From: Psammoneis japonica
Taxonomy: Eukaryota
DNA: 64,000 bases
Direction: 5' to 3'
Assembly (NCBI GenBank): GCA_008632985.1
Contig: QPGO01000024.1
Coordinates: forward strand, 124,001 to 188,000
Numbering within the stretch: the first letter of the stretch is position 1; the number at the start of each line of letters is the position of its first letter. The position numbers and the translations under genes were made by a program. The notes beneath the pieces are model-generated. The model saw only the letters and a program-made list of their open reading frames with translations. It was not told the origin of the DNA and ran no database searches. Shown here piece after piece: positions 10,056 through 59,659 of this stretch.

Positions 10056-13000
10056 AGACATCGGCTTCTGTTGATGTCCTGTAGTGTATGGAAAATAGAG
10101 TGAGGCGGGCATTTTTGACGTTCTCGCTTGTCATGCCGAAAGATTCCAAGTTAGCTTTTGAGTAATAAACCAAGAATTATCTACTGCTACTAACTCTTGA
10201 TTTCATGAGTCAAAGGATGAAAGGACTTGCATGTGAATCTGGTCGGCCTGCCGCTGGAGAAAAAGCAAGAGGAGACCGGCATTGACCACGACAACACGGA
10301 AGCAAGAAGAAAAAAAGCGTAGCAATCTCATTTGCCTGCAGTGCCTGGCGTGCAAGAGAAAACAAGAGAGAGCTCTGACGGTGTGGGCGTGACACTGTGC
10401 TTATCTGTTGGCGCGGCACACTTGAGGTGCACTCGCAAAGTGCACACATTGACTTTTCCCAATTGGCATCATGCGGCATGTCCAACACAGCCACCAGTGA
10501 AAACCTGTGCATCACATCCTTTCTGTTCTTTTCTTCACTCCTAACTGCCCCACAAGAAATGTCCACTCCAAGGAACCCATGCCATGTGAAGCAAATCTTT
10601 CATTGTTGATGCTTCGTCCTTTCTCATGGGTTGGCATCAGTGGCTCTCTGGGGGGGGATGCTGTGTTGCTGGAGTTTGCAGGATCAGAAGGTTCCTCAGC
10701 TTGAAGTTGGCATCCCCTGCCCTGTCCACACTCTTGAAAAATAATGGTTCTGTCAATGCCATTGTGAGCTCGTGAACAAACTCCTTGCTCATTCAACCCT
10801 TTTGCATGCAGGAACACCCTTGCCAAGCCAATGAAACTTTTGTGTCTGGCTTGACTGTGTTTGAGCTACATGCATCAAACACCCTGGCAACAGCATCACA
10901 CAGGCAGTCTGCATCAATTTGTCCAGTGCATGTGGTCAAACAAATTGTCAACAAGGGCTCTGCCCTGATCTTCTCGTGTGCTCTTTCCCACACCCTTGAT
11001 GAAAAATGGAGCATGCTGTGTTTTTGGAAACCCCTCTTTGACCAACAACAAAAACAACAAGGTTGCTCTTGAGTGCAACACATGATTGAGACCAATGAGA
11101 ATCATTTGGTCCTGAGAGTCATGCACAGAAATTGTGCAGGCCAGTGCAAAAAATGTCAAGTTGTCCTCCGCACATCTGTCCATCACACTTCTTGGGTGTC
11201 AGTTTTTCTTGGGAGTTCAACTGGAGTGCAATCTGATCAAACACATTGTTCTTTGCCATGCAAAGTGAAGCACCTTTGATCAGATGGCAATCAACTGACA
11301 TTTCCCTCAAAGTCATTGGCTCCAACCACCCTCTCAAACAACACTGTGTGTGCATTTCAGCATGACTTTGTGTCTTTTCCTTGTGCAAGAAAAGCAGCTT
11401 TGACTGTTGAGTGAAAGGCTCCTGTTGAAGCAATCTGCAAGCCATCATGAGGGCAACCCTCTTTCAAAATGTTGGCTGTGCTTGACTCCTTTTGGAATTT
11501 TTGAACAATGCCAAGGGCTCTCAAGATGCTGCACCCACAATCTTCAATGAGATCAACCCCAACTCATTGTGGTCAACAGCAAAGCCTGTCCTTGTGCAAG
11601 CTTTAACAACAGAAACAGCCCCATCATTGGCAACTTTCCAGTTGCCAGAGTTGTCACCATTCAAAGCACCTGGGACATTCTTCAAGTCTTGGAGGGGGGG
11701 GGGGGGGGGGGGGGCAAAAGAATGATGTGAGGAAGCACAGCTGTCAAAGTCAACTCTGTCTCACCAAATGGCAAGCAAGATTTGGAGGTTTCTGCAAATT
11801 TCTCCAGCTTGGTTTTGTCAACTCGAATGTGTTTTGCCTCACAGTGTTGGCTTGGAATTGGGCTCCAGTTGAGCCTGGGAAGTTTTGTCTTTGGAGGCCA
11901 TTCCTGTTCAGGGACATCACGGCTGCCATCCTTGCAACAGAGATGCCAGGTGCCCAGCACTTGGCTGGCTGGCTTTCCCATTGCCTGCTGAGTTGACCCT
12001 TTTGAACATTTGTCACCCACACAGCAGTGGGGCTGGAAATGCCAGTTGTTGCCACTGCCGTGCAACTGTGCTGAAAAAAGGATTGGCCAGGCAGGTGCCA
12101 GACAGAGATGCTTTGAGTCTGGAGCCGCCACAATCTGCTGCCAGTGAAAAAGCTGACCATGCAACACTGGCTTTGCTTCTTTTGGCAACCATTGGAGGAC
12201 ATGCCAAATGGATGAATGGAGATGCCATGGTCTGAAGCAGTCATGATCTGCTGCTGGGCATGCAGGCTGGCTGGCAACTGCCAACACTTGTCACAGGAGC
12301 AGCTGCTTCTAAAAAACTGATGAAGCCAACTAGCTGGCATCAACTGGCTGGATGACAATCAGTGAAGAAGCTCTCAAGCTGGCAGTGGAAAGAACTTGCA
12401 GTGTCTTTGTGCATGCCTTTGAGCAAGTGCAAGTCTTTGTGCTTTGTGGCAATGGCTCAATGACAAAAACCACATGTGGTCTAGCATTTTTGACATTTGA
12501 TGGGTGGATTTTGCCAACTGTCATGTGCAGGCATTGCGCACAATTGTGGCACTCTTGCTGCTTTCCACCTCAGCTCAAGCACACCTCCTTTGCAATGTCT
12601 CTGCTTCCAGCTTTCATCAAAGGCACTCTCTCTCTCTTTGGGCAACAAATCAACAGAGAAATTGCTGAGCTTGATGTTGTCTACTCACAAAGAGCTCTCT
12701 GGATGGCGCCATCAGGCAAATGCACTGAGACAAGCAACTTTGAGAAACTGGTGGGTGGTTGCTGACAACAGCACATGCAAGAAGGAGGATGGCTGGAAAC
12801 ATTTTTGTGAAAACTTTGTCAGTTGAGCCAACACCTTTGCTGCACTCACAAAACCTGATCCTGACAATCTCCTGCAACAAAGCAACTGCAACAAAAACTC
12901 AACAATTCAGTGGCAGCACATCTGATCAAGCCTGTGTCAGTTGACTTGCTCTGGGAGCTTGGGTCATGTTGATGCTTTTGCTTGTGTCAGAGGAGGGGGA

Positions 13001-13099
13001 GAGGCCTTTGATCATGGAACAAGCCACCTTGTCCTTGTTGTGGGCTGGGGCACTGCCCAGCAAATTGGGCTGCAAGAAGACTTCCACAACAACAGCACA

Positions 13100-14950
13100 T
13101 TTTTGCAGGAGAAAACAATGGCACAGCTGTTTTTATTTTGTTGGAACATTGGGGTCAGGGGCAGTTTTTGCAGGACAGACAGACAATGTTGCAGTGCAAC
13201 ATGCTCTGACAATTGTGGGCAATGTGGTGAAGTTGCATTTGCAACTTGCATTGAGTTTCAGGTCTTGTGCTCCCTTTTTGGCTTCTGCACCCAGTTGACA
13301 TGGCAGCAAGCTCAGCAGTTGACAGCATTGGTGGAAATGTGTTTGCAAGCCACACAGGGCGTTTGGGGTCAGTGAGGCTGAATGTGTGCCAGTTGGTGAG
13401 CCATGAAACTCCAACACAGAAGCCAAAAAGCAGTGGAATGACACTCAAAGGAGCGGTGGTGTTCAAAGGAGCATCTAGTGTTGGTGCATTGTGGCAAACT
13501 GGCTTGCTGGATGAGGGCAAAGAAATGATCTCTGGAGGGCCTTGCTGTCAACAAAGCTGTCGAGGGCCCTCTTTCTGCCAAAAGAGGGTGCAGCAAGGTT
13601 TTGTTGGGGTTGGCAAGACTCAGCATGTGACTGTCGGTGCAAGCCACAATGCTCCAAAATTGGTTAAAAAAAATGGGCAAAGACACAGCTGAGTGCAGAA
13701 GCACAAAAGATTCAATGGAGTGGGTGCATGATGCCATTCTTGCCAAGTTGGGATGACAGGCAGATGGTTGCACAGAGACCACAAACAAGATCAGCAAGCA
13801 TGTTGGCAGAATGTTTGGGCCAGAGATGCTGATGCTGGCATCTGTGAAGCAGGAGAGCATGCCAAAAGAGCCAGAGAGTGTCTGTTGGTGGACACTGCAC
13901 TGGAGAAGGAAAAGGCAATCTGTGGCAGTCCCAAGAAGCAATGTGGTCACCATGAAACACTCTGCAAGATGCAGAAGGCAAAGGCATTTGACACAATTGT
14001 GGGATGATGCACAAAGGCAGTTCATCACAAGAAGATTGAAGGAGTGACAGAGCTTGTGAGAGTCACAAACACAAAGGAGTGGGACATGGCAGCACTTTTG
14101 GAGGTTCTCATCAGTCTCAGTCTTGTTCTCAATGCAAATGAGAAGACATGCCAGCATGTCCAGGTGGTCAAGGCTTGGAAGCAGTTGGTGCTCATTTGTC
14201 AAGATGAAGGAGAGGCACTTTAAGATCACATTGCAGTCAGCTCATGAGCATTGTCACAGTGACAGAAATGTCCCATGGCAGGATCATCTCAGAAGACAAA
14301 ATCGCCAAGAAAGAAGATGGGTTCAGCAAGGATGCTGATGACACCTGAAACAAAGAAAGAAACAAGTTGTTGGTGGTGTGCCAATGGAAGGTGCAAAGAA
14401 GGAACACTGCTGGCATGTCTTGAAAGACCTGCATCAGCAGTTTGCACTGGGGGTCGACAATTGCCCCAATTTGGCGGAGGAGGCATTGCAGGTGCTGCAC
14501 ACATGTGGGACCAACAAGAAACCTGAGGGTGCAAGTTTTGCACAGAACAAGAAGAAGCAGATCAAGTGCTGGAAATGTGATGATTGTCCTGACAATGTCA
14601 TTCATTGGCAGAGTCAGATGATGTGGGTCATGGCAATCAGTGGAGCAGTCAAAGTGGTGTTGGGTGGCATGGTTTTCAAGTGTCATCCTCCTGTGCATGC
14701 TTGATGTGCACAAGGCCAATCAATTGACAGCTTGTGTGAAGGAGTGTGTTGGAACATTGGGGTCAGAGGTGGTTTTCCCAGGACAAACAGACAATGTTGC
14801 AGTGCAAGATGTGTTGACAATTGCAGGCAACACAGCAAAGTTGCAATCATGACTCAGGTTGCAGGTTGTGTGCTCACTTTTTGGCTTTTGGAATGTGTTC
14901 AAAACAAGCCACATGGCGAGTTTTGGTCAGCAAGCTGCAAAACTCCAACA
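13100..14950 (+). mobile_element. Repeat family A, copy 1 (degenerate gag-like remnant, zinc knuckle partly deleted)
   Basis: Colinear with parts of 18975-19537/24845-26240 and 59660-61650, e.g. shared GTGGTCAAGGCTTGGAAGCAGTTGGTGCTCATTTG. Confidence 0.7.
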
Positions 14951-15749
14951 GAGTTTTGCAGGCAGCTGCAGAGGTTGCTGTGGGTTGTCTTGGATCCACC
15001 AGGGGCTCCAGGTGCAGGTTTGTCATGTCAAGAGAGCTTGAAGCAGTGGACAGTGCTGGTGGAATCTTGGGAACACAAATGCAACCGGAGGGCTGAATGA
15101 TGTGTGTTGCACAGCAGGGGCAAAGCAGAGATGGGAGGTGCCAACAAGAACAACCACCTTGGTGCAACAAGCCACAAGAGCTTCTTCAATCTTGTGGTCC
15201 ATCATCCATCAGGATGAACAAGATGCTTGGTCAAAAGATGCAGGACTGGTGACTTTGAGGGGTGCTTTTCTGAAGAGCGATGCAGCAACCGGTGGTGCAT
15301 CTGCAGGGTCAAGGGTTTCCAGAAGGATGAGTTCTTGAAAAATGTGTTCCCAAAGCAGATCAACAATGCTGTCTTTGGCCTTCCCATGCTTGGGATCATC
15401 AAAGAACTGATCCAAGTCAATGATGCCACCACCGCAAAGGCTGTTGCCAGTCTGCAGGGCCTGTGCATTGACAAAAAAAGCACTTCCAGGATCAAAAATG
15501 GTGGCAGGCATGTTCAGCTCACAAAACAAGCACAAATCACAGTGGAAATTGCTGCAGTGCAGAAGGGTGACAACCCAATGAGTGCACAACATGTCAGAGT
15601 GCCAACGGCAGCATGAGGAACAAGCCAAAGAGCTCCCTGCAAACCAGCAACAGCAGTGGACAACACACATGTGCTGGCAAGAAAGAGTGACAAGAAGTTC
15701 TCAGAGAGATCATCTTGTCCATCTGAAGGCATGCATTTGACCATCATCT

Positions 15750-18700
15750 ACACACAGTCTGACCTTGCACAGGGTCAGCTGACAGTTGCAGAACAGATGT
15801 CCTTGTGCAGGGGTTGCTGGCTGTTGTGTCTTGGCTTCTGACAACAGGACTTTGACAGCAGCCAAAAGTTGCTGTGTGAATTGACAGGCTCTGTGTTGCT
15901 GCTGCAACTCTCCAGATCAGAGCACTGCTCTGAAGCTTGCTTTGGAGCACGCTGGACTCCAGGTGCCACCAGCATGGAAAAACTTCCAACCTGGACAGAG
16001 GCTCTGGTGTTGACGAGACTGCTGGTGTTTGTTCCATGATCCAGCTTTCCTCTGCAATGATGACATGTTTTGCACACACACAAAATGTGAGAGAGAAAGA
16101 GAGGAAGTTCAAAAACTGACATTTGCAGCACTGAAAATGATGAGGTTGAACTCTGTCCAAGCTCCTGCTGCACACAAAAAGTCCTGAGTGAGAAAATTGC
16201 ATGGAATTTGCACTGGGGGACCCAAAAAAGTCCAGAACAACATGATTTTTAGCTTTTTTTTTGGACATCCCTGGCACTGCTTTTATGTTGGATTCTGCAA
16301 AGTTCTAGAAAATCCTGTCACTCTGGACATTTTGTGCTCCCTGGCACAAACTCTGTGCACCATTTTTGCTCTAGACTTTCTGTGCATGGCAGTGCAGGTC
16401 AGGCTGATGCTCTTGTTAAGATCCACTTGGTTGACCAGGTTTTGAGCATCCTCTTCTGTGCAGTGTAGACCAGAGATTCTTCCACACATTGACAAAATGA
16501 ACAAGAGTGTCAGAGGCAAAATGTGAGAGTGGAGCTTTCACAAATCTTATGATCCATGGAGGCATGCTGGCCACGCACATGCAGACACATTGGCTGATCA
16601 TCTTTTGGGAGTTTGGCTTGCCTCTCAGCTCTCAAAGATCCAAGGTTGGGACAGCAGCTGTGGTTGGCTGCCAAATGACTTGAGGTCAGTTGGAACAATT
16701 GACTGCCACAGCTGATGATCCTTTGATTGCTGACAATGGCAAGTTTCAAATGAGAAACTCTCAAATTAAAACACTGAACACACTGTCAACTGGGAGCTTT
16801 TGGTCCTGAGTTGTGTCATTGCCTTCATGCCAAGCCCCAACCTGCAATGATGTCACTCCAGCATCAGAAGGGAGCAACAGCCCAATCATGCTGCAAATCT
16901 TCTTCCAATGGCACCTGTCTGTCAAATGTTTTTTTGAACATGGTGCATCCACAGAATCATGCCCTGCTTGTGAAGCAGAGATCCTGAAAACTCAAAGAGG
17001 GGGGGGGGGGTGGAGTTGTCAAATGAAGATCACAGGTTTTGCAAAACAGCCAGTGTCTTCTTTAGGAAGGATCGCTGCACCCCTTGCCAGGAAAAGTTGC
17101 CTGCCAGCACATGTCACATGTGGTCATTCATTCTGGGCAAGAGCCATCATTGCATGGAAATTGTTGCCAAGCACTTCAGTCATTGGCCAGCAGCTTTTTC
17201 ACATTCACAACTGCTCAGGATGACGTGTGCCAGGGTTTGACAACCAAATTCATGGCAGTCATTGTGGAAACAACTAAGCAACATCCTTTGAAGGCAGAGT
17301 TTCAAATGCCATGGTCAACAATGACATTGCCAAAACATGCCACGCACATCTTTCTGACTCTTCCAAACAAGATGCTGCCACAACCAGCACTCATTTGAAA
17401 AAGATTGTGTTGCATGGTTGAAAAAAATGGATTGTGCAAGGCAGCATTTTTTGTCATCCAGGACTGCACAGATGATGGATGTGCCAAGCAATGCAGGCAT
17501 GATTTGGCATTGCGTGTGTTGTCTGTGTTTGTGCACAAATGCAAAAAATTGTGTTCAACCCAGCAGTTGGTGCACCTGGACATGGGGCAAGGGAGAAGTG
17601 GGTGGCACTGGAGCACACACAAAGTCTGTGGCATCAGAGGGGGGAAATGTGGCCCATTGATTTGGTGACAGGAGCAAACAAAAAAGCCAAGAAAAGTGGT
17701 GCAAATGTGCCAGATGTTGCAGATTAAGACAATTGTGTTGTCAAGTCACACAACAGTGCTTGAAAGTTCTTGAAAGGGGGGAAAGTGCAAAAGGGACAAA
17801 TTTGTGGCAATTGTTGGAGATGTTGATGTCCGCTGGAGTTTTGCCATGGCAACAAAACTGCCTGGAATGTCTTTGCAGATGACTGCAGTGGTCTTGGTCA
17901 CAGTGGCCACAAATTTCTTGAATGTGAGCTTGCACCATGCTTTCCAGCATTGACAATGGTGGCAGGAAGAGGGTCGGCAATGGTGCCAGTGCTCACAGTG
18001 GAAATGACAGCCATGCAGAAAAGGACATCATGAGCAGCTTTCACAGTTGAGAGGTGAGTCAGAAGCAATTCTGAAAACTGTGATGACTTGACCAACAAAG
18101 AAATTCTGTGTGCACTGCACCAGTCTTCAACACAAAAGTCATGCAGAAGGTGCACACCATGTGAACCTCAAAGAACAAGTGGCGCCGGCTGTCAGGGGTG
18201 AGAAAAGCAAATTTTGCAGTCACACTGCAATGGTGTGGGTCACAGTGTGAACTCAATTTTCAAAAGCCAGCAACAGCATGGTTGCATGGGCTGCATCTGT
18301 TCTGTTTTGCATCTTCTCCTTTTTGAGGTTTTGCAGCTTGAATTGTCAACATTGGGCACCCCCATGCTTGTTGAGTCATGCAAAGTGAGGTGAGCAACCA
18401 AGCTGCTGAGCTCTGCCTCAGAATGTTTGAATGCAGGCATGGGATGAGTTTGCAATGACAGTGACTCCAGGTGCACACATTTGATGGAAGTTTTGTGGGT
18501 CAGCAGAGGAGAGCAAGACAACCACACAATTGCTCACCCACTGAATCTCATTGTTCACACACAGGGCCTGCACTGCAATCATCATGAGTTGTGTCTTCAA
18601 TGCCATTGGTGGCAAGCATCCTGTCTCTCTTGACCAAATTTGAGCACATCAGCCAATTGTCCCCAATTGACCAACCCACACTGGCACACCTTGTTTGCTG

Positions 18701-18944
18701 AGCTCACATGCCTGCTGTGGTTGCTTGTTGCAAGCAACATCCAGGAGCAGTGGTTGCCACCACCATGCAGAAACAAGAAAAAATGCTTCCCAAGATGTGC
18801 TCTGAGCAGCATGGTGACAAGCAGCTACAAGAAATTGACCTGCTTGGGTGTGTGACACAATGAGCTGAGAGACGAAGGGCAGACAAACTTGGGCCAGTCA
18901 TTTTGCTTGCTGAGATTGACCTCTTGCTTGGCAGGGCAACTCAA
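15750..18944. repeat. Repeat family B, copy 1 (about 3.2 kb, unclassified)
   Basis: Colinear with 52376-55968 from CACAGTCTGACCTTGCACAGG to GGCAGGGCAACTCAA. Lacks about 360 bp present at 53145-53505. Confidence 0.9.
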
Positions 18945-19537
18945 TGCAGTTGCTCCTTTTTTCTGGCATGTTTGTGGATTTTTAAGAGCAAAATGGGCAA
19001 GGCAAAAATGGCGTGCAGCATTGGAACACAGGGGTCAGAGGTGGTTTTTGCAGGACAGACATGCAAAGTTGCAGTGGAAAGACACACCAATGATTTTGGA
19101 CAACATGGTGGCTAAGTTTGCATTCACAACTTGGATTGAGTTGCTGGTCCTGTGCTCACTTTTTAAGTTCTGCACTGGGTTGACATGGCATTGGTGGTTG
19201 ACAGTGCAAGCAATGTGTTTGCAAGCCATGGGCTGAGCTGGGAGTCAGTGAGACCAAATGTGTGCTGGCCGGAGATCCACAAAACTCCAACACAGAAGCC
19301 AAAAAGGCACGGCATGACACTCAAAGGAGTGTCATCATCAGAAGGCTGGGAAGATGAGAGGAATCCAAGAAAAAGGCTGGGAAGTTGACAAGAATCCAAA
19401 GTTGTGCTTCATGTTGGCGGGTCACACCAGCAAACAAACTGGCTGGATGAGGGCAAAGAAATGATCGCTGGAGTGCCTTGCTGTCAACAAAGCTGTCAAG
19501 GGTCTGCTGAAAGAGGGTGTGGCAAGGTTGTGTCAGG

Positions 19538-19969
19538 TGCCCCATGCATGCAACAGGCGACGAAAATGCAGATGTGTTTCAATTGTGTCATTGTGGAAAA
19601 TTATGAGCTAATTTCATGTAGAGAAATGGGGTCGTAGGAACAGGGAATCGCATCAAATTCGCTGTTCGTTTGCATTGTGGATCGCACCAATCGATCGTGC
19701 ATTCGCATTGTGGATCGTGCGAATCACACCAACACGCGCTGCGCACGAGTGATGTCATCGTGTGGAATCACACTGCTGTTGTGGGCCAGACAACAGGTTA
19801 GTGTGCTTCACACGGATGCTCTCTTAGCATCCTTCTGGATTTGCCTGAGACACAGAGCCACATCCTCCTGTGGTCTTGCTTCCCAGGTGCGTGCTGACAA
19901 CACTGCGTTGTCACGCACAAGAGGCCATGCACAGTCTTGCCGTGTTGTCCAGTGCTGAGGCATGCTGCA
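19538..19969 (-). repeat. Gypsy 3' LTR (432 bp)
   Basis: Direct repeat of 24408-24840; adjacent polypurine tract. Confidence 0.92.
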
Positions 19970-20185
19970 CACTCCCCCATGATCAGGGCTGTTGAGTGAC
20001 AGAATGTCTCACTGGTGACAGGGCACAATCTGCCATAGATTGCATGCATCTGTCAGTGCTCCATTCTGGATGCGCAACGTGCCATTGTCACACACACGGA
20101 CAACTCTGGCAGGTCCTGCATGGCAGTCAGAAATGCACTTAGAAGATTGTTCTTGTTTTGTGAGCGCCAATTGCCCAACGGTGTG

Positions 20186-23100
20186 TCAGTGCTCCTTGTG
20201 TTTCTGATTTTCACGCTTGATGTTTGGGTGGATGAGCTTCTGTTTTCTAGTTTCCATGTGCTTCCACTTGGCACGATGGGCAATGGACAAAATTGCATCG
20301 CGTCCGAAGACCAATTGCATGGGACTTGCACGCATGGTTGCATGCACCGTGGCTCTAACAGCAAAGGCTGCAGCAGATGGGATGCCACTCCAGGGGTCAT
20401 CCTCATCCACTTCCACATCTTGCACTGAAAATGAGCGTGCCACATTGCCAAGTGTCTGGTGCGCACATTCCACTGTGGCACTCGCCTGTGGATTGTGCTC
20501 ACTTGTGGGTTTCTTCAGAATCCCACAGTCATTTTTAATCATCTGGCTAAATTCTGCCATGAATTCTGTCCCACAGTCATGTGCTGCCTGGGTTGGCCAC
20601 GGATGTCTGTGCAGCCAAGTTTGTTCCATGACGTTTGCTGCTGCATCTGCAAGTTTTGCAGACACTTCCTTGATCTCAAACCACCCGGTTGCCGGATCAA
20701 TCACAGTGACCGCCCATGATTGCAAGGTGTCTTTTCTGCATCTTTGGATTTTGTAGGGCCCTGTCATGTCTGTGCATGGAGTCTCCCAAGGAATTGTCTC
20801 AGCAACCATTTTTGGTGGCTTGCCATGACGCTGCATTTGGCGTTTTGTCCTCTGGCATCGTTCGCACTTAACGCATGTAGAATGCACCGCAGACCTCACA
20901 CCAGGCCAGCAGAAGTGCTGGGCAATGAATGTTTCCACACGTGTCTCACCTGGATGACACAGTGTTTTGTGGTGTTGTTCAGTTGATGGAACCTGCAATG
21001 ACTGAGGCACTGCAATTTTGTCCTTATGAAATGTTGACTGTCGCACTGACCCTCCCCCATGATGCACACGAATGGAGCAGTCAGACGAGTCCTCAGCTCG
21101 CTGCAGTGGGTGCTTGTCCTGTTGCTGCTCTTTTTGGATGCGCTTGAAGCCAACAGGCAGAGGTGCAGTGTCTGGCACGTCTGCATTGAAAGCTTCATGT
21201 GGGAGACGACTCGATGGAGTGTCTTCTACATCTGGATTGGATTTGGAAGGCAAAGGTGGTGCCAGCCAAAGGCGACTAAGAGCATCAGCGACTGGGTTGT
21301 GGGTGCCCTTGACATGTCGTAATTCGGGTCTGCACTCTTCACATGTCAACCGCCAGCGCATCACACGTTCGGCATTGAATGCTTTGCATGTTAGATTTTT
21401 GTGATCAGCACACATGATTGTGCGATGACCAAGGAGCATCATTCGAAATTCTTTCAACGTCTCCACAATGGCGAGCAATTCTCTCTCTGTTGTTGTGTGA
21501 TTTAATCTGTTGTTGTGTGATTTAATTGTGCACTGTCAAGCTTTCTGCTGCAGAGTGCGATTGGTTGGTCATCTTGGGATGCAACTGCTCCCAATTGACA
21601 TTTAGAGGCATTGGCATGCATCTCAAAGGGTTCATTAAAATCAGGATGTTTTAACAAGACATTGTCTGACATTGAGCGTTTGATGGTTTCAAATGCCTCA
21701 TCTTCAACGGACGTCCATTGCCACTCAACAGTCTCGCCAACGAGTCGTGTCAGTGGAGCCAAGACTTCAGAATGTCTGGTCCACGTGTCACGGCAGCAGT
21801 TTGCCATGCCTGTGAATGAGCGCAGGTTGCGCTCATTTGTGGGCTTCGCGATGCATTCAATGGAGTCAATTTTTTTGTGCATTGGCCGTGTGCCATCACG
21901 GTTGATGAGACAACCCAAGTGTTCTAATTGGGTTTGACAGAAGTGTGACTTAGTTGCGTTAACTTCAAGTCCTGCTTCTTCAAGTTTCTTGAGGTGATCT
22001 TCACAGGTGCCTTTTGGCACAACGAGAAGGTCATCCAAGTGCATTTGAACAAACAACAGATCTTTGAACAAGCTTGACATGCGTTCTTGGAAGATGTCTG
22101 GCGAATTGCGTGACCCCATGGGCAACACCTGCATCTCACACTTGCCCCATGGGAAGATGAGCACACAGAGCTTCTCACTGTCAGCATCCAGTCAGACGTG
22201 ACAATGACCCACATTAAGATCCAACGATGCAGCCCACACAAAGCCTTCGAGCTTTTAGTGGCATGTCCTGGATGTGAGGGATCTGACAAGGCAATCACTT
22301 AATCCGTTCACTCAGCTCCCTGAAATCATTCATAAATCGTGCCGTCAAGTCTTTCTTTGGCATGACAAAAGATGGAGCCACCCATTGGGATTGGTTGACG
22401 CATTTGAGAACACCCATGCACACAAGGCGCTCTGCTTCTTTACGCAGTGTAGCTTCGTGCGCACAAGGAGCTTTGTGCGGACCAGTGTGGCATGGTTCTG
22501 CGTTGTTCTTGAGTTGGATGTGGCAGGGTTCTCCCTTCCATTCTCCTAAAGTCCCATCAAATGAGGACTCATGGCGTTTCAATGATGCCAAAAGGTCGTT
22601 CTGTTGAACAACAGAAAGTCCTGTTGCCCCTTGCGTCATGTCCTCAAGGCATGCTGGTGTGTGCTTGGCATCCAAAATGCGTGAAATCTGGTCGGTTTCT
22701 GAAGTTGAGGCTTCTGGATCGTCAAGAAAGAAGGAGGTTTCTGCTGTCACATCTGCGTGCCACATTGGTGCTTCTCCATTGACTGTTGGCCACTCTGTCA
22801 TCTGTTCAGAGAAGACAATGTCAATGCCTTGTGCTTCCAGAATGTCTCGTCCAATGATCACATCGCACTTGCCCAACTTTCCATTGTGCACGTGGACAGC
22901 ATGCACAAGTTCCGCAGTCTCGGACAGTTCTGGCAACTTAAATTTAACGGTGCAATCGCTGACCACACTGAACCAGCCTGCTGCCATTGTCCAGTTTGTC
23001 TCAGCCATCAAACAGCTTTGCAAATGCTTGCAGCGTTGCTTGTTCAGCAGAGCACTGCTGGCGCCGCTGTCTGGCAGCGCCTCAACAGTCTGAGTCTTGC

Positions 23101-24312
23101 CTTTGCCATGTTCAGCATTCACAGCTGCAAACAAGATTGGTGCAAGATGAGTCTTTTTAACTCGTTTGCGGGATTGGCCTGCAACACATGTACGACGGCA
23201 TGTCAGTTGTTCATTCATGCATTCATCTAATGTGTTGAAACTGCCAGTGTCATGTCGGCCCCCTTCTCAGGTGTCCGAATCATCGGCATTGCTCAAGTCA
23301 AGGTCGCGGAAGTGATTGAGCTCTTCCTCATGTGCCTTGCACTTCTTCTCAGCATTGGCAAAGCATTCGTCCACCTTCGTTCCGATGACAGCATGACCAT
23401 CTTCTTCAGGCTTGGATTTCTGATTGGGCTTGCCACCTGCACCATTGGTGTGTGGCTGGTCTTGACACGCTTCACATGGTGCTTGAGTGCACAACAATCA
23501 TCAGCATGATGTCCACAGTTGGTCCCGTGGAGCACACACAACTTCTGGGTGTTCTTCTGATTTGTGATCAACAACTCAGGATTGTCTGTTCTGCGGCCCT
23601 GCTCACATGGAACCTCAGCATGTTGGTCCTGGTTGCCTTTGGTGAGCTCGACCTGCTCGATGCGCTCACAGAACTGTACGAACTTGGCCACAGCATGAGC
23701 CAACAGATCAAAATTCTGTGGCATCATGATTTTCTGCCACGCGTTTGGCACTCCGCACTCAAATGAGTCACAGAGTTCATCATTGGGCAATGACTCTGGT
23801 GCTGCTCCACCCTGCGTCAGAGGCGGAAACTGAGAGATGCAGCCATTGAGTTCAACAGCCCTCACGACACAGTCATGAGCAGAGACTTCAGCGGGCTTGC
23901 ACATGAAGCGTCGCAGACAACGTTTCTGCAGCAGCACTGCCCCATGAGGGAAGACACTTTCCTTTAGCTTTGCCATGCACACAGCATGCACAGCGTTGGT
24001 TTGGGATGCCTGCTCTTCAGCGGCGTCATTGAAGGTTGTCAGGGCATCGCCCTTGAGGAACCTGCACACAAGTGCAAACTTGGCCGGCCCCGCAGTCATG
24101 TTTTGTCCTTGATGCACGCGCTCGGAGTTGTGCAGAAGGACAAGGAGTTCCTTGCATGTTCCCGCAGAATGGTGCGGTGTGCCCATCTTGTGTGTTGGAC
24201 TGTCAGGATCAGTGGGGTCATTGCGCAGCTTGAACATCTGGTGCTCACCCTGCTGCAGTTCCTTCTTCTCCGGCCATGCGAATGGAGTCGGCGGCTTGAG
24301 ACGCTTCTTCAT
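20186..24312 (-). pseudogene. Gypsy gag-pol pseudogene
   Basis: gag FKLRNDPTDPDSPT; protease ALPDSGAS; RT LPMG..HLDD; RNase H ANASKCQLGAV, SRKL, ADHKNL, VADALSR; integrase H..H..C..C, DMTGP, DCGTEF, NPQASATVE. Frameshifts include a 20-bp tandem duplication at 21486-21525. Confidence 0.92.
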
Positions 24313-24407
24313 GGTGATTTTCGAGTTTGTTGGTCCTGCCAACATGTTGCAGCATTCGTTTTTGTAGATTTTGTAACCTCGCACACCATGCGGGAGCAAT
24401 GTCACTG

Positions 24408-24840
24408 TGCCCCATGCATGCAACAGGCAACAAAAATGCAGATGTGTTTCAATTGTGTTGTTGTGGAAAATTATGAGCTGGTTTACATGCAGAGAAATGG
24501 GATCGTACGAACAGAGAATCGCATCAAATTCGCTGTCTGTTCACATCATGGATTGCACCAATCGATCGTGCGTTCGCATCATGGATCGTGCGAATCACAC
24601 CAACACACGCCATGCACAAGTGATGTCATCGTGTGGAATCACGCTGCTGTTGTGGGCCAGACAACAGGTCAGTGTGCTTCACACAGATGCTCTCTTGGCA
24701 TCCTTCTGGATTTGCCTGAGACACAGAGCCACGCCCTCCTGTGGTTGTGCTTCCCAGGTGCATGCTGACAATGCTGCGTTGTCACACACAAGAGGCCATG
24801 CACGGTCTCGCCATGTTGTCCAGTGCTGAGGCATGCTGCA
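24408..24840 (-). repeat. Gypsy 5' LTR (433 bp)
   Basis: Direct repeat of 19538-19969, followed on the + strand by TSD CAGG. Confidence 0.92.
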
Positions 24841-27800
24841 CAGGGTCAGCAACACAGGGTGTTCACCTGTCAACAAGCCATGAAACTCCAACACAAGTCC
24901 CAAAAAAGATGGGCAAGAACACAGCTGAGTGTGGAAGCATGAAAGATTGAAGGAGTGGGTGTGTGACACCATTGCCAAGTTGGGATGACAGGCAGATGGT
25001 TGCACAGAAACCACAAGGAAGATGGGCGAGCATGTCAGAAGAATGCTCAGCTGGAGATGCAGGCACTGGTGTCTCTGAAGCAAGAGAGCACCACCCCAAA
25101 AGAGCTGGAGCATCTGTGGGGAGTCACCCTGTGGGAGAAGGACTGGAGCAAGGAATGTGGTCACAATGCAAAACAGGGTGCAATCTACAAGACACATGAG
25201 GGAAAAGCGTTTGACGTTGTTTGAGGGGCAATGTGCAAAGGTCATTCACCACAAGTTGAAGGAGTGACAGAGTTTGCAAGAAGAGTTAGAAAGGAGTGGG
25301 ACATGGCAGCACTGCTGGATGTTCTCAAGTCAATCTTGTTCCAGGCAAAAGAGAAGACAAACCCACACGTTGGGGTGGTCAAGGCTTGGAAGCAGTTGGT
25401 GCTCATTTGTTGAGATGAAGGAGAGGTGCTTCAATGTCAATGTGACTGGCCCATGAGTCTGGTTGAAGTGGTGAAAGCATCTTGTGGCAGGATCACCATC
25501 ATGGAAGAAATCACCAAGAAAGAAGGTGGGTTCAGCAAAGATGCCAATCACAACCAGAAAAAAGAAAGGGACAAGTTGTTGGCAGTGACGCCAATGGAAA
25601 GTGCCAAGGAACATTGGCGTGTCTCAAAAGACCCATGTTGGCAGTTCACACTGGGGGGCGACATTTGTCCCAACTCAACTGAGGAGGAACTGCAGATGTT
25701 GGACACCTGTGGGACCAATGAGAAACCTGATGGTGCAAGTTTTGCACAGAGCAAGAAGAAGCATGTCAGATGCTGGAAATGCAACAAGGTTGGGCATGTG
25801 AGAAAAGATTGTCCTGATGACAGCTGTCATCCATCAGTGGAGTCAAATGATGTGGGCCACTGGAGTCAACAGAACAGTTGACATGGTGTTGGGTGGCATG
25901 GATTCCAAGTGTTGTTCTCCCATGCTTGATGCACACAAGGCCAATGTCATCAGTTGATGGCTTGTGCGAAGGAGTGTGTTGGATCATTGGGGCCGCAGGA
26001 AGTTTTTGCAAAGGACAGATGACAGACAAAGTTGCAGTGGAAAGACACACTGATGATTGTGGATGATGCAGCAAGTTTGTCTTGTGCTCACATTTTTGCT
26101 TCTGCACCTGGTTGACATGGTGTTGCGGGCAGTGGTTGACAGCACTGGCAGCAATGCATTTGTGAGCCACACAGTGAGTCAGGAGACAGTGGTGTGGCCA
26201 AATGCATGCCAGTCGGTGAGCTGTGAAACTCCAACATGCAGACAGATCTCCTGTGAAGTGTCCCAAAGAGCTGGCACTTGAGAAGTTGCTCAAATGCAAT
26301 GACCCGTGTGCTTGTTGCTGGGCATGAACAAGTGCTTTCTTGTGGCTGCCTTTGTGAAAACCACCGCCAGAATCAACTCTGAAAAATTGAGAGGAGAACT
26401 TGACAAGAGAAAAGAAATTCTGTGCACATGACACCAGCCTTTCTGGCACAACAGTCACTTGCAGTGCACACAGGTGCAGCCCTTGAGGAAGCCGTTGTGT
26501 GAAAGCAAGTTTTTGTGGTGTCGCGCTGGCTCATGTGCATGTTTCAATGATTCCACAGCCATGGCCAGCCTTGACATTGGCATTGATTCATCAGATGAAG
26601 ACGGATTCAAAAGACATTCTCGCTGTTGAACACAAAACACCGGCGACTCGCGTTAATCTCAAGGACTGTAAACAGCTGGGACCCATGTTGTCACGCGGAG
26701 AGCTTCTCATGACGGATGCAGGCAATGAACTTTCAAACTTGGTCAAGGTGTGCTTGTCTCCTTCTCATCACAACTTGTGTGACTTGGCCGTGAAGCTCAT
26801 GATTTCCCGCGAAAAGCCAGCTTGCCTCTTGTCTCTCCTGAGCATCTTGCTGGAGCACGGACTTCGACAAGAATGGTGCCACGTGAATTGTTGGCCTTTA
26901 GACGCCATTGCTTGCCCGGGTGCCTGCTTTGTCACTCTTGATGGCCATGGCCAACAACAACAGCACAATCTGCTCTTGTGTCCTCACTTGTGTCTTGATG
27001 ATGGTTTAGAGAAGCCAAATTCTCTGGTGCACAAATTGGGCGGATTGACAATTGTGCTGCTGAGCAATCTGCATTGTTCCTCTTGTGGCGGTCCCATCAT
27101 CAGTGCCGGTCTGTCTCATGGCATGTTTGATGCGCACCTGGAGGCTGAGGTTTCAACGTGCCAGGAAAGCAAGAGCAATGATCATTTGTGGGATGCAGCT
27201 CAAGCCGTGTTTGCAGCACTTGAGGGAGCTGCAAGATCACCTTCATCAGAGCTGCGCCAGTGTCAACCAGTCTTTTCCTTTTCAGCTGGAGCAAATCAAG
27301 ATGCTCAAAAGATGCTGATGCAGTTGGAGCATCTGCAATTTTTTCAAGCGTCAGACGACAGTGGCCACCACAGTCCAACAAGCACCTGCGCTGATCCATT
27401 GCATCTTGGTGTGCCAATGGAGTTGTTGCAACAGGGGTTGAAACAAGTCCTGCCCTTTTCCAGTGGTCACCCTCATTGGGACGCTCAGGCTGCTTTTGTG
27501 GAACATGATTGCAGCATGAAACTAGCGTGTTGTACAGCTGCTTGAGCTCTTCTTGCCAACGTGGCAACAGCTTCAGCTGTCCATCTGTGTCTCCCCCCTG
27601 CCCTGACCCTGAACGGACCAGAGACAGACGGGTGAGACAAAGTCGGGGTTTGGGGCTGACCACTTTCAAAATGACCAAATTTGCAAGTGGTCTTTGCATG
27701 CAAAATAGAGTGCAATGACTTTTGCATGGTTCGGGGTTTCACAAAAATCACTCTGTTCACTGACACAAAACATTCCGAATTTTGTGTTGCCCCAGTCATT

Positions 27801-28163
27801 TCTGGGTTGGGATGCCATTGACTCCTGGCCAATCAATTGGCCATTTTTCTATTTTGAGGTCATTCATGTCAAACACATGTTTGAATGCCAGTTGCTTTTG
27901 TCTTTTTTTGTGCCCTCAATCCATGCATGTGACATGGCCCTTTTTTCCGTTGAGATGATGGGTGCACATGATTTTGTGCTTTTTGTGCATTCGCTCGCTT
28001 TCAAACCGGAGATCGTGAGCACAAACAACTCACGCAACACCCTTGTTTCTACACCTGACAAGGACAATCACATGATGCAAGCCTGGATTGTTGATGAATT
28101 GTTAACTTTAAAAGTCATTGTCTAATGATTGCAATCTTCAGCAGTTGTGAATGCCTTGCACAG

Positions 28164-29950
28164 TCATTTGCAACACAAGAGGGGCCTGGCAGCCTTCTTG
28201 GAACCCTCTCTTGTGCTCCTGAAGTGACCAAGGAACTCACTTGATGCAAATGGCATGCCCTTTGTTTTCCTGCCATCAAACTTCTTCCCAAGACAAAGTC
28301 CCTTTCTTGTTGTCACTCTGGACAGAACCACATGCATGAACCCAGCTGTCTCTGCAGCCAAAGTTGTTGTTGAGCCAACAGCCAGGCTCTCAATTCCCCC
28401 CCCCCCCTGGAGCTTGTGTGCAGTTGCTGTGTTGTTGCACAAAACTGGGAACTGGGTCAATTGCTTCCTCTGACTGATTCTTGGGGTTCTCTTTTCAATG
28501 AAACCCACCACAGGGACAGGAAAGTTGACAACACAGCATGTCTCTCTCCTTGGAGCCACACAAAACAGCTCTCCCCCTGTCTTTTCCTCATGCCTCAAGA
28601 CAATCGACTCAACTTGTGAAACAGAGGCTGACCTCACCCAATGACCATCAATCCTCATCAACTCCAAATCATCCAAAGAAGCACATTCCTTCAGCTCAAC
28701 TCCCTCAAAAAAGCCAGAACAATGCCGCTGGCTGGCCTCCTCATTTTTCTCCACGTTCTCATTGCGGTTCATCATCACAGGGCAGCCATGCAAAGCTTTG
28801 GAAGTGGGTCCACATGACCTGACTCATTCCCAGCTTGTTTGACATTATGAGCATCTGGACAAACTGCAAACAAAATGTCCTTGGACAGCTCATCTTGAAA
28901 ATCCACATGCTCGTGTCTACATTTTTTCCACTCGAGGTTCTTGCTTGCCCAGAGGACAATGGTGTGGGTTTGAGGTGGCTGTGCAAGAGATTTTGAGTGT
29001 GTTCCCTCTAGTGCCTTCTTGAAAATGCCATTGTTGACCACATTCCTGTCAAGATTGGTGGCAACAGCACAGGTTGAATTGCTTGTTGTGTCACTTTCCA
29101 TGAGGAAAAGATTGCTCTGGCAGATCAAGGTTTTCAACTTTCAGATGTTTCCATGAGAGAGTCAGTCACAAAAATGATGAAAGTTCAGAGGAGAATGGCT
29201 GGCCTGTCAGGACTCATCTGATTGCAATGAACAATGAAAACACCACCAAATCATGTCTTCAGCTTCTTCAGTTCATCAAAAATTGGGCGACAAAGCACAA
29301 AGAAACTGCAAACAAAATGTCCTTGGACAGCTCATCTTGAAAATCCGCATGCACGTGTCTCCATTTTTTCTGCTTGAGGTTCTTGCTTGCTCAGAGGACA
29401 ATGGTGTGGGTTGGAGGTGCCTGTGCAAGAGATTTTGAGTGTGTTCCCTCCAGCACCTTCTTGAAAATGCCGTTGTTGACCACATTCCTGTTAAGATTGG
29501 CGGCAACAGCACAGGTTGCATTGCTTGTTGTGTCACTTTCCATGAGGAAAAGATTGCTTTGGCAGATCAAGGTTTTCAACTTTCAGATGTGTCCATGAGA
29601 GAGTCAGTCACCAAAATGATGAAAGTCCAGAGGAGAATGGCTGGCCTGTAGGACTCATCTGATCACAATGAACAATGAAAGCATCACCCCGACAAAGCAC
29701 AAAGAGACAACAAAAGTGCAAGACAGAACATGTTGCTGATGATGATGCATTGCGCAACATTGTGCACTCTCTGCCTGTTGCACCCAACCATTTGTGGGCC
29801 ACTGTCAAGCTGGCTGGAGAGGCATGTGATGAAAATGACACTGATGGAACATTTCACGAAACTTGCACAGATGTCGCGAAGTCATGATTTGCTGCTGGTG
29901 GCTGATGAGTGTCGAAATGAAGCAAAAGAGCACCACAGACATCCTTCTCT
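28164..29950 (-). pseudogene. PIF1-family helicase remnant (probably Helitron-type)
   Basis: TQFPVLCNNTATAHKLQG (motif V) and MHVVLSRVTTRKGL (motif VI, YVxLSRV); AVATNLDRNVVN upstream. Confidence 0.75.
28861..29685. repeat. Tandem duplication of about 385 bp (period about 442) in the helicase remnant
   Basis: AAACTGCAAACAAAATGTCCTTGGACAGCTC at 28861 and 29303; both copies end GACTCATCTGAT..AATGAACAATGAAA. Confidence 0.88.
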
Positions 29951-32030
29951 TTGACATTTTAACAATTGCAATGTCATTGTGTTGTTTGAAGCATCTGATG
30001 TTTCATCTTAAATGTTTGTAAATGAAGACAATGAGACACAGCCGTTCAGCGAAGCGTCCAATCTTTGCCAATCTCTTAGAAGAGTCATTTGCTTTGGACT
30101 CGAAACAAGCTGGAAAACGAATTCCAAGCCGCAAGCTTAAACAGCAAAAGAGACTTTGCGACTTGACACCATTTGTGACAACAATGTATTCGTTCTTTTC
30201 ATATGTAGCTTTGCTCTCGATAAAGCAACAAATCCAACATGAGGAATCCGAAGTTTCACTCTCTCCTTCACTGTTGCTCAAGGCGGTAGAACGATCGAGA
30301 ATGTGCGTTTCTACAATGGCGACCTTTGTGGTCACAAACAGCGACCGTGCAGTCTAAGCAGCAAGGGAATACAGTCAAGGCAATGCCGTTCATACAATCG
30401 TACAACAGGCAAAGCTTGAAGAGGGGCATCAAACGTAGTGGCAGACGTTTCCCTCCTCGAGATGAACTCCCAGCCGATCAAGTATCGCATAATGGAAAAT
30501 CCGACTGCACGCCAAGGGACCGACTGAAACGAAATGATACAGAAGGAGACTCTTCAAAAAGATGCGCTGTCACAGTGCAGACTAAAGCCAACGAAAAGAT
30601 TAGACTCAGATCGGTAGTTCTCTATTACATGTGAAAAGCCGGACGAAGAGCAATGGCGGCCACTGCTTTATTCAGTTTGAAGAGAGGAGTTAGGCAAAGT
30701 GCGTGCTCTCGGAAAGAAGTGATTGGACGCAATGACTAGCGGAAAGGAAAAAGAGCTAGATTGAATTCATACGATGACGTGTGCGATCCCTCCGAGCTGT
30801 TCCTAATTCCATTTGTATAGCCGTTCGTGAACGTACTTATTTCCCGTCGACCCTAACCAGCCACAGTTGCGGTGAACGCAGCTAACTAGGGACATAGTTG
30901 TGAACTCTTGCATCGAGGAGGGGAAGCCGCTTCTACCCTGAATTTTCCATTCAGGAAACGTGTCGATTATGGAAGTAGCGCGGCCAGCGACTTTTTCTAG
31001 TCTTCTTCTATGGGTCGGCATTTGTGCCGCTTCAGAACATGATACGATGGGTGCTTGCTATTGCTCAGTAATACTTGCCGCACGCGACAGAGGTAAAATG
31101 GTGAGTACGAGGAACAGGAGTGTATCGAATAGACCTAGCCATCTAAAATTCTACAAGGTCGCGAAATTTGGTGATCTCCTCAACCCCACTATGTTCGTCC
31201 CTATTTGGCTTTTCCCAACGGGTACGTATCCTGCAATTGGTTTCATCCTTAGCCCCACTCGGGCAAAAAATCGAACCACTCAGTGGTTCACAACTTGCGC
31301 AGCGTGAAATTCGCGAGTGACACAATGAAGTAGCACCCACACGTTTATAACCTTTTAAAAGAGGCAAAAAGCCATCGTTATCAATGCATTATGTTGTCAG
31401 CAACCACTCGTGAATGGAGCACGGTCGCCGTCAAATCACCGTCATGGTCGTTGGCGGTGATTTTCTCACCCCGTAGAAACCACCGTAGAGCAGTACCAGA
31501 AAAAATATCGAACCATTGAGCGGTTCGCTGCGTAGATAAGTACCAGGAGCCCCGTAGAATTGGCGAACCATGAGGACCCAAAACAAAACCCAATGTCTAT
31601 GGAATGCAAAATTGAACCAGAAAAATGAGGCTCACGATGAACAAGACGGTAGCAGTACGGAGACGTTTAAGAACATAGTAAACCACTAAAATAAAGCATA
31701 CACATTGTCAAACAGACGCTGCTGTATCGACTGATGCAATGTTATTGTAGATATCTCATTATCTTTTACACTTTTACCCATCGTCTATCGGTTCGTTTTT
31801 GGCTTGCCGCGAACCACTTGATGGTTCGGGGCAGGAATCGCGCGCATTCGTCATTTCGTACATAGGACCCTACTGTACCTACGATGCATGATGACAGACG
31901 ATGCGTGAACCGAGCGCGCTTCGCACTTCGCACCCCCGGGGTTTTTATTGAATAAGTTGTTATTCATTCTGGAATGCCATATATGAAAACCAATCTTTCA
32001 CTCTCAACGGCCGCAACTGATAGACTGACT

Positions 32031-32570
32031 TGTGACAGACAAGTAAATTTTATTAATAACGGATATAAATATTTGTCTGTCACAATGGGCATTGTGACAG
32101 ACAACTAAATTTTATTCATAATGGATATAAATACTTGTCTGTCACAGCAACTTGTGACAGACAAGTAAATTTAATCCATAATGTATATAAATACTTGTCT
32201 GTCACAACGTGCATTGTGACAGACAAGTAAATTTTATTCATAATGAATATAAATATTTGTCTGTCACAGCAACTTGTGACAGACAAGTAAATTTTATTCA
32301 TAATGGATATAAATACTTGTCTGTCACAGCAACTTGTGACAGACAAGTAAATTTTATTCACAATGTATATAAATACTTGTCTGTCACAACGTGCATTGTG
32401 ACAGACAAGTAAATTTTATTCATAATGGATATAAATATTTGTCTGTCACAGCAACTTGTGACAGACAACTAAATTTTATTCATAATGGATATAAATACTT
32501 GTCTGTCACAACAACTTGTGACAGACAAGTAAATTTTATTCACAATGAATATAAATAGTAGTCTGTCTCA
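32031..32570. repeat. Tandem array of nine 60-62 bp palindromic units
   Basis: Unit TGTGACAGACAAGTA-(AT-rich, about 24 nt)-TACTTGTCTGTCACA-GCAACT starts at 32031, 32093, 32153, 32215, 32275, 32335, 32397, 32457 and 32517. Confidence 0.95.
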
Positions 32571-32945
32571 ACGGGCAGTTATGAGACCCAGACCATAAAT
32601 AATGATGTTGAAGTTGGTCCGGCAAGCGAGAATCCGGGTTCCTTTTTACCTCCACCGCGTGACGAAAGCACACGAAACTTACAAAAAACCGTCGCAGCCG
32701 ACGATGAGATTGAGGCGATAAGAAAGTTATCGAGACTATCATCGTTTCGTGGACTTTTCATACTGTTTCTTCAGCAGCTTGGCGCTCTTGGTGATACTTG
32801 AGACAAAACTTGAGAGACGAAGGCATTGAGAGGGAAGTGGAACGAAGCCAAGACACTGCGAACTGCAAGAGTGCATGCACCAACACACGCGACTTCCCGC
32901 TCCCCCCAGCAATTATTCATACCAATCTCCTCCGCTCCTCCGCGC

Positions 32946-55300: not shown

Positions 55301-55968
55301 GCTTGAATTTTTGTGCCAGTCTTGCATGACATCAACATTGGACACCCCCCCATGCTTGTTGAGTTGTGCAAAGTGAGGTGAGCAACCAAGCTGCTGAGCT
55401 CTGCCTCAGAATGTTTGAGTGCAGGCATGGGATGAGTTTGCAATGACAATGACTCCAGGTGCACATTTGACGGGAGTTTTGTGGGTTGGCAGAGGAGAGC
55501 AAGACAATCACACAATTGCTCACCCACTGAATCTGGCTGTTCACACACAGGGCCTGCACTGCAGCCACATCAGCATGAGTTGTGTCTTCAATGCCATTGA
55601 ACGCAAGCATCCTGTCTCTCTTGACAGAATTTGAGCACATCAGCCAATTGTCCTCAATTGACCAACCCGCACTGGCACACCTTGTTTGCTGAGCTCACAT
55701 GCCTGCTGTGGTTGCTTGTTGCAGGCAACATTCAGGAGCAGTGGTTGCCACCACCATGCAGCAACAAGAAAAAATGCTTCCCAAGATGTGCTCTGAGCAG
55801 CATGGTGACAAGCAGCTGCAAGAAATTGACCTGCTTGGGTGTGTGACACAATGAGCTGAGAGACAAAGGGTGACCACTCCTTTTTAAAGAGCCCACCACC
55901 AGGCAGACAAACTTGGGCCAGTCATTTCACTTGCTGAGATTGACCTCTTGTTTGGCAGGGCAACTCAA
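52376..55968. repeat. Repeat family B, copy 2 (about 3.6 kb)
   Basis: Colinear direct repeat of 15750-18944. Confidence 0.9.
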
Positions 55969-56528
55969 CACCATGAAAAAATTGTTGTCAGCTTTTGTTG
56001 AAATGATGCAAGAGGCAAAATTTTGTTTTCAATGCCCCCCCATGACAGGAGCACAAAAGACATGATCATGAAAAATGCAAAGATCAACAATTGAGGCTTG
56101 CACAAACGACACCCCATGAGATGGTAGTTGCACTTGATTGTGCTCTGGAAGAACGCGACAAGATGGATCATAAATGTGTGATTGCAGGAGCGAGAGTTAA
56201 ACTTCTCGTGACGAGGCTGGAAATGGAGCTTGGCGGATTGGGGCTGTCAGAGCTGCGGACATGCCTGTGCACTTGTGCAGCGATCCCAGTGCCGCTTCCA
56301 TGTGTTTTTCTGTGTTTTGCCACCAGAGTTTGTGACAATGTGCAATCGTGCGCCTGTTCCCACCGACAAAGACAGCGCCACCCCTCCACTTCTCGCACTC
56401 GAATTCATCTGACACCAAGGCAACAGAGCTTCAATCACCTCCATCAGGTCAAAAGACTCTGAAAGCGTGGAGCCATTGCCTCGTTTGTGAGCATCCCCCA
56501 TCCCCCCCCCCCCAGCATTCGAGTTCAT

Positions 56529-58855: not shown

Positions 58856-59015
58856 TGTCACAGAAAAGATGTCTGACTGCAAAAGGATGTTGTGATGAAA
58901 GGTGTAGCGAATGGAAGCAATTGGTCGCAGAGACATGATGAAATCAAAATTCAAAATGGCCGCTGGTGTTGTCGTTGACCATCTTGTTGTGGTTTGTTGT
59001 GGCTGGAGCGAAGAG

Positions 59016-59600: not shown

Positions 59601-59659
59601 TTCCGTTTGTGGTTTCAAAGGAACGTTTGCATCGCGCAGGCCTGGACACTTCTGAGATG

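Follow-up and report, generated by a model that had tools for sequence, protein, structure and literature searches.

Loss of TpA and CpG steps in a Ty3/gypsy retrotransposon of the diatom Psammoneis japonica and in its young relatives

The window analysed here, a 64,000-nucleotide stretch of Psammoneis japonica DNA (assembly GCA_008632985.1, contig QPGO01000024.1, positions 124,001 to 188,000 of the forward strand), carries a Ty3/gypsy retrotransposon that has inserted into an older repeat of the diatom chromosome (Table 1). In this family A:T pairs have been changed to G:C in chromosomal DNA after insertion; the change affects both strands, is specific to TpA steps and is limited to domains that it has in common with CpG decay. 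Assignment of the element to Ty3/gypsy follows from the pol order on the minus strand (reverse transcriptase (RT), RNase H and then integrase by Pfam, with a D-S-G read directly that we take to be the protease motif) as well as from the paired long terminal repeats (LTRs) with TG...CA ends, the polypurine tract and the short target-site duplication (TSD). An earlier note, made from the letters of the stretch, had singled out 19534-24844, which is exactly the element plus both target duplications, and had placed an empty site near 60220; there, a single CAGG in a paralogous host repeat verifies both the junction and the 4-bp duplication. Of the 18 other family elements that have two LTRs and both flanks (the tandem locus L092 excluded), 15 carry identical 4-bp TSDs, and the remaining three comprise one TA>TG change and two read off register. 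No obvious TGG-type tRNA primer-binding site was seen by eye beside the 5' LTR, tRNAs not having been searched against. LTRs of the family also occur as three in tandem within 2 kb (L091/L092, G000:C105) and as an adjoining, inverted pair (L006/L008, G000:C152).

Table 1. Coordinates of the retrotransposon, its host repeat, the empty site and the surrounding island within the window.
Feature	Position	Strand	Basis
TA- and CG-depleted island around element, sharp borders	10200-30000		TA observed/expected
Older host repeat receiving the element; zinc-knuckle gag remnant 25414-25878	18980-26532	plus	self-BLAST; PF00098
Left target-site duplication CAGG	19534-19537		one copy only at empty site
Ty3/gypsy retrotransposon, 5,303 bp	19538-24840	minus	Pfam domains, LTR pair, target duplication
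3' LTR, TG...CA ends; 6 TA and 22 CG remaining	19538-19969	minus	LTR alignment
Polypurine tract, 2 bases off 3' LTR	19972-19978	minus	direct reading; sister 3' LTRs with equal spacing
Disrupted pol with the end of RNase H and with integrase; one Tyr among 449 codons	20186-21535	minus	PF17917, PF17921
Disrupted pol with reverse transcriptase and RNase H	21502-22191	minus	PF00078, PF17919
Protease region, D-S-G at about 23063-23071	22295-23266	minus	direct reading; no Pfam match
Gag-like region and leader	23293-24407	minus	position only; no Pfam match
5' LTR; 3 TA and 17 CG remaining	24408-24840	minus	LTR alignment
Right target-site duplication CAGG	24841-24844		LTR/junction alignment
Paralogous host copy with empty site, single CAGG at 60220-60223	59660-61952	plus	self-BLAST, junction alignment

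The real control for mutation after insertion is a group of 16 younger sister copies and not the LTR pair of the window. The LTR search, with 40 of 255 candidates scored, gave 20 two-LTR stretches, of which 19 were aligned; the young group is this set without L085, L036 and the window copy. L092 (tandem LTRs) was left out of the full-length alignment and L076 (cut off) out of the LTR-pair tallies, and the analysis was made without L039-L058, L061-L070, L102-L109 and L113-L121. Outside the pyrimidine-purine (YR) steps CG, TA, TG and CA, pairwise divergence of the young copies is 0.6-2.1%. TA, TG and CA are all present at 254 of their 306 TA-bearing steps, where CG makes up 6 of about 4,770 states. 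TA is the ancestral state, since it is the only state present that lies one step from both TG and CA. The reverse change, TG or CA to TA, was seen 19 times in about 9,700 observations of fixed steps. Of 110 homologues, 100 have Tyr before xDD in the YxDD motif of RT, whereas 12 out of 15 young copies and the window copy have His there; together with the three-state sites, this Tyr-to-His change fixes the direction as TA loss. Not one of the 229 codons in the RT piece of the window copy encodes Tyr, which makes up a median of 4.6% in homologues. None of the 110 homologues is itself Tyr-poor (10th percentile 3.3%), a survey for edited genomes in which gene callers favour intact copies. Erasure of TpA in the young copies is about 7 times more complete than that of CpG, for which 374 CG steps show 406 CA and 375 TG.

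Several lines place the change in the chromosome, as the earlier note had claimed when it excluded editing of RNA. TG and CA products are equally frequent in the young copies. In copy L032 one TSD reads CTAT and the other CTGT, i.e. a change in host DNA that was duplicated at integration. The two LTRs of young elements agree at 141 of 217 sites, compared with 1914 of 3017 between LTRs of different elements, and TA outcomes are independent between the LTRs in 14 of 15 young pairs (the exception agrees at 15 of 16, p = 0.004). Pieces of the erased sequence 283-374 bp long recur, at 0-2 differences, in contigs of run X1, which may stem from the same sample. Two metagenome loci with an RT protein identity of 45-46% have a TA observed/expected ratio (O/E) of 0.10 and 0.01; their query patterns were taken from an edited copy, so the loci speak for existence elsewhere and not for frequency.

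Erasure is organised in tracts. Spared tracts of 0.6-2.2 kb are present in 10 of the 16 young copies, at differing positions, and their TA loss is 69/1063 (6.5%) as opposed to 2887/3703 (78%; 1455 to TG and 1432 to CA) in hit tracts. Columns 1-870 of the alignment, which hold the 5' LTR and leader, are spared in no copy, and the 3' LTR is spared in five; 5' LTRs retain fewer TA than 3' LTRs (15 pairs, Wilcoxon p = 0.008). Adjacent changes lie on the same strand at a frequency of 0.498, with 0.507 +/- 0.007 after shuffling. Strand-coordinated, kataegis-like runs are thus absent, and erasure is built from many separate local events. The family gives no support to the idea that an LTR is spared through lying near a gene: flanks adjoining spared 3' LTRs with at least 13 TA contain 0-2 TA per 500 bp in five of six cases, and in L081 it is the hit 5' LTR that adjoins the TA-richer flank.

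CpG decay follows the same tracts. At matched sites hit tracts have lost 336/2993 CpG and spared tracts 20/922, a five-fold lower share where TA is spared, and A>G outside YR steps falls likewise (75/13180 hit, 3/3974 spared; p = 5e-6). Private G>A changes outside CpG are equal in the two (45/10471 and 13/3176; p = 1), so spared tracts look equally old and protected. The pattern of CG to TG or CA on both strands of silenced repeats is plain; its route may be deamination of 5-methylcytosine (5mC) in transposons methylated by DNMT5. Genome G000 has 27 matches to C5 DNA methyltransferases (families not typed), several of them clustered and broken on C297 and C10.

The sequence context of TA loss is well defined. 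In a competing-risk fit the hazard by the base at +1, relative to A, is 2.9 for C, 3.1 for T and 1.3 for G, so that TAY is lost about three times as much as TAA; A is unfavourable at +2 and favourable at -2. RTAY sites retain TA at 1-6% and YTAR sites at 26-43%, and the residual TA of the window fits this preference of the young copies (YTAR 28/47, against 104/578 in genes). TA is edited in about 39% of strand-copies and AA in 1%. Off-target A>G in hit tracts amounts to 68/6910 at AA, 61/8130 at CA and 25/6289 at GA, with 4/1517, 3/1620 and 1/1399 respectively in spared tracts. Adenines close to an edited TA are co-edited on the same strand within a window of about 6 bases, -2 to +3. The A at +1 is changed in 38/590 cases with a same-strand TA edit, 11/826 with an edit of the other strand and 4/782 where TA is kept; same-strand and other-strand values are 29/595 and 10/682 at -2, and 15/395 and 5/519 at +2. 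Beyond +/-4 the change of neighbouring A is flat at about 1%, and after invariant TG it is 4/1788.

The LTR pair of the window itself mainly records ordinary CpG decay, a known process. Over 432 aligned bases (19538-19969 against 24408-24840) there are 40 mismatches: 32 transitions within CG, TA, TG or CA steps, 6 other transitions and 2 transversions. The earlier observation that the differences gather at these steps is therefore sound (32/38 transitions against a background share of 0.59; binomial p = 8e-4), and all four mismatches quoted for it are found in the alignment. The 32 transitions make up 26 sites, namely 12 CA/CG, 4 CG/TG, 6 TG/CA, 2 TA/TG and 2 TA/CA. Aligning the LTRs, classing the mismatches and comparing them with relatives, the check that the note had proposed (here five near relatives and 24 young LTRs), traced 18 sites to CG and 5 to TA, one of these weakly and the others clearly, and left 3 unassigned. 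Of the mismatches quoted, CpG decay accounts for GCGACG/GCAACA and GTCATT/GTTGTT, and TA loss for ATGTAG/ATGCAG. The note had read each TG-versus-CA pair as one palindromic ancestor changed on opposite strands; chromosomal change on both strands stands, whereas the six such sites divide into 2 derived from CG, 1 weakly from TA and 3 unassigned.

TA loss in the window copy has another history. The copy has lost 235 of the 271 steps that are TA in its young sisters, and its LTRs carry the identical derived letter at 14 of 16 TA sites, whereas site biases would give 9.8 (p = 0.02). Agreement is 16/16 when the sites are chosen less strictly, and 8/8 at sites with TA in both sub-lineages. At CG sites of near relatives no loss common to both window LTRs was found. 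Most of its TA was thus probably lost before its LTRs were last identical, so that the differences between them mostly show the slower CpG phase. Origin from an edited lineage, or homogenisation by LTR-to-LTR conversion after editing, may account for this. The mismatches that the note offered as an internal control are real, but they are mainly CpG decay and the TA outcomes are mostly common to both LTRs. Element L035 (G000:C254) resembles the window pair, with a heavily edited interior and LTRs agreeing at 15 of 16 edited TA sites; a re-copied edited parent or LTR conversion is possible there.

Around the element lies an erased island with TA O/E of 0.01-0.19 (11 to 30 kb), compared with 0.55 for TA and 0.98 for CG in gene blocks. 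Repeats have a TA O/E of 0.02-0.14, i.e. mobile DNA is erased and genes are spared. The note had also proposed the empty site as a before-and-after control for mutation, and this fails: the older host copies are TA-exhausted (O/E 0.02-0.08 in both), and 65 of their 156 mismatches are YR transitions and 91 are not, hence the empty site controls the junction only. Flanks of 19 family members have at most 5 TA per 500 bp in 34 of 37 cases (genes about 17), and the family is almost confined to erased islands, through targeting or spreading. A tandem array at 31970-32637, in which units of 60 and 62 bp alternate and show inverted symmetry within themselves, retains TA (O/E 0.74), so repetition alone is no trigger of erasure. 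Elsewhere in the window, 15750-26532 and 52377-61952 form a local duplication of nested repeats of about 5-6 kb, 36 kb apart, each of which later gained its own insertion, the element in one copy and, in the second, a piece of about 3.7 kb (55968-59660). The latter includes five AT-rich units of 116-119 bp with inverted symmetry (59016-59643). A RusA Holliday-junction resolvase domain (PF05866) lies at 62789-63451, and the NOG1 gene of the window has named homologues from Nitzschia, Attheya and Chaetoceros-type sources. The stretch is contained in one public DNA run only, with no RNA run among those listed.

The best explanation of the whole, which we consider probable, is that two processes act after insertion, CpG decay and editing of TpA by a TadA/ADAT-like activity in silenced chromatin. 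In the first, CpG turns into TG or CA, which may come from deamination of 5mC in DNMT5-methylated transposons. In the second, TpA turns into TG or CA on either strand; the chromatin domains concerned are kilobases long, are those of CpG decay as well and in every case take in the 5' LTR and leader. Here a deaminase would act where silenced DNA is unpaired over a short length, and the inosine that it makes from A would be fixed as G at replication. A DNA adenine deaminase of TadA/ADAT type is the candidate enzyme, at odds a little better than even. A wider proposal, which is doubtful, is that diatoms possess a DNA adenine editor of the TadA/ADAT family, recruited to cytosine-methylated transposon chromatin, which nucleates at the 5' LTR, spreads over kilobases, removes tyrosine codons including the catalytic one of RT and so kills elements, a mirror image of repeat-induced point mutation (RIP) shared with Rhizaria. 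The two metagenome relatives show the same footprint.

Several points weigh against the deaminase account. The TadA-like and ADAT2-like genes (L095, L099) belong to near-universal tRNA-editing families, and a hydrophobic leader on L095 suggests an organellar destination. Sequence alone cannot separate attack on A from attack on the paired T. The sharing between window LTRs is a modest result (p = 0.02), and the 40 candidates scored out of 119 include no sibling above 84% that could share the edits of the window copy. Tracts were called by a hidden Markov model with parameters of our own, and rare-variant counts assume near-star ancestry. Private transversions in matched columns are about 3-fold higher in spared (19/7150) than in hit tracts (20/23651), for which the model has no explanation. 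Separately, the absence of inosine repair of the Endonuclease V type was considered as an explanation and rejected, Endonuclease V being present in G000. One frame of L098 (316-1791, minus strand) encodes a zinc-dependent deaminase domain fused with a 2OG-Fe(II) dioxygenase; the fusion is probably metabolic and unites the two chemistries considered for TpA erasure.

The main rivals to a deaminase are an enzyme that writes a modified base at TpA and repair by a polymerase-eta-like enzyme. In the former, N6-methyladenine, or 5-hydroxymethyluracil or 5-formyluracil made by a TET/JBP-type enzyme, would be followed by deamination or mispairing to give A:T>G:C. Such a writer suits the strict dinucleotide specificity and the confinement to chromatin domains, and is compatible with A and T targets being inseparable from sequence, but co-edited non-TA neighbours at -2 to +3 need a loosely positioned catalyst; overall it seems unlikely. 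PF05063 (MT-A70) and PF12851 (TET/JBP) had no match in G000, in a search whose controls matched nowhere either.

Error-prone short-patch repair with A>G at WA, triggered by T:G mispairs from 5mC deamination, would join TA and CpG loss in the same tracts and give short same-strand clusters, and the excess of AA>AG over GA>GG agrees with it. Polymerase eta, however, hits AA within a few-fold of TA, a ratio far from that of the TA and AA edits seen here, and CA is changed at a rate close to that of AA. The 78% TA loss also lies far above the supposed trigger (11-15%), and we regard this account as improbable.

Only a small chance is given to spared tracts being younger DNA, whether converted from an unedited copy or produced by polishing of the assembly, with TA loss otherwise uniform. 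The lower CpG loss would follow, and a divergent donor could be reflected in the transversion excess. Against this, private non-CpG G>A is equal, transversions are not fewer and several borders are graded, and the run X1 contigs, within the limit given above, reproduce erased pieces.

Editing of RNA or cDNA before integration, ADAR-like or APOBEC-like, has very little left in its favour. ADAR prefers a 5' U (bioRxiv 10.64898/2026.01.13.699255, in its available text), and in the window pair and one young pair most TA changes are common to both LTRs. Equal TG and CA without strand runs, the changed TSD and the independent outcomes of the other young pairs contradict it, and host and flanking DNA is erased too.

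Fungal-type RIP (CpA>TpA) or CpG decay alone, the latter sufficient for 18 of the 26 window LTR sites, can be dismissed as an account of TA loss, since TA is depleted and not enriched, the direction is settled by the three-state sites and by the loss of Tyr, TG/CA>TA is rare and the tandem array keeps its TA.

That methylation inflates LTR dates has long been known. When non-YR transitions and transversions are taken as the clock, the raw LTR age of the window pair comes out 2.4 times too high (40 against 16.8), in agreement with the earlier claim of overestimation, and that of 15 young pairs 8.3 times (389 against 47). Both figures are lower bounds because bystander edits inflate the clock too. 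As a single control the window pair, being mostly CpG decay, serves less well than the younger sisters. LTR dating in the source genome must mask CG, TA, TG and CA steps, or age is overstated about 2- to 8-fold. Hardly any natural enzyme is known to edit adenine in genomic DNA, the only comparable report found being one 2026 preprint, as judged from its available text. Tract structure, TAY preference and the short same-strand window provide concrete predictions for finding the enzyme, which, if real, would be of interest to designers of base editors.

Among known systems, RIP of ascomycetes likewise makes dinucleotide-specific, near-saturating transitions on both strands of repeats and distorts LTR dating, but it creates TpA. 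Here the polarity is opposite, TpA being lost and not gained through C>T at CpA, and repetition is insufficient, parts of repeated elements being spared. In Phaeodactylum, loss of DNMT5a removes methylation and de-represses young transposons (PMC9998398, in the part of the text available). Silencing methylation of this kind would be the substrate for the CG>TG/CA change that dominates the window LTR pair; unlike TpA erasure, it leaves A:T pairs untouched. Engineered TadA adenine base editors give A-to-G changes most highly at TAY (PMC10879117, likewise from accessible text). These are laboratory enzymes guided by Cas9, and the likeness is one of spectrum, with no homologue shown to act here.

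The closest system is that of Bigelowiella natans, in which integrated NCLDV and virophage DNA undergoes TpA-only A:T>G:C hypermutation and an ADAT2-like deaminase is proposed (bioRxiv 10.64898/2026.01.13.699255); the comparison below follows the available text of that preprint. A literature search found no diatom report of TpA erasure, and the process has a recent precedent in this one 2026 preprint, in which the enzyme is not identified. ADAT2-like and TadA-like genes are present in the diatom but near-universal, and the enzyme is unproven in both organisms. B. natans rates, about 1000-fold above background and in some lines only, were measured de novo, while the diatom data are a comparative footprint; the mutation table of the preprint may already hold flanking-context data. 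As in B. natans, A:T>G:C in the diatom occurs almost only at TpA, giving TpG or CpA on both strands of nuclear DNA, is confined to regions and spares genes. TpA-poor windows of B. natans itself are enriched for transposon domains, and the diatom is similarly erased in repeats. Unlike the NCLDV region (Rho 0.45), diatom LTR retrotransposons are near saturation (TA O/E 0.02-0.15), and they add to what that text describes a preference for TAY, bystander edits on the same strand, a link with CpG decay, and tracts that at 0.6-2.2 kb are shorter than the element.

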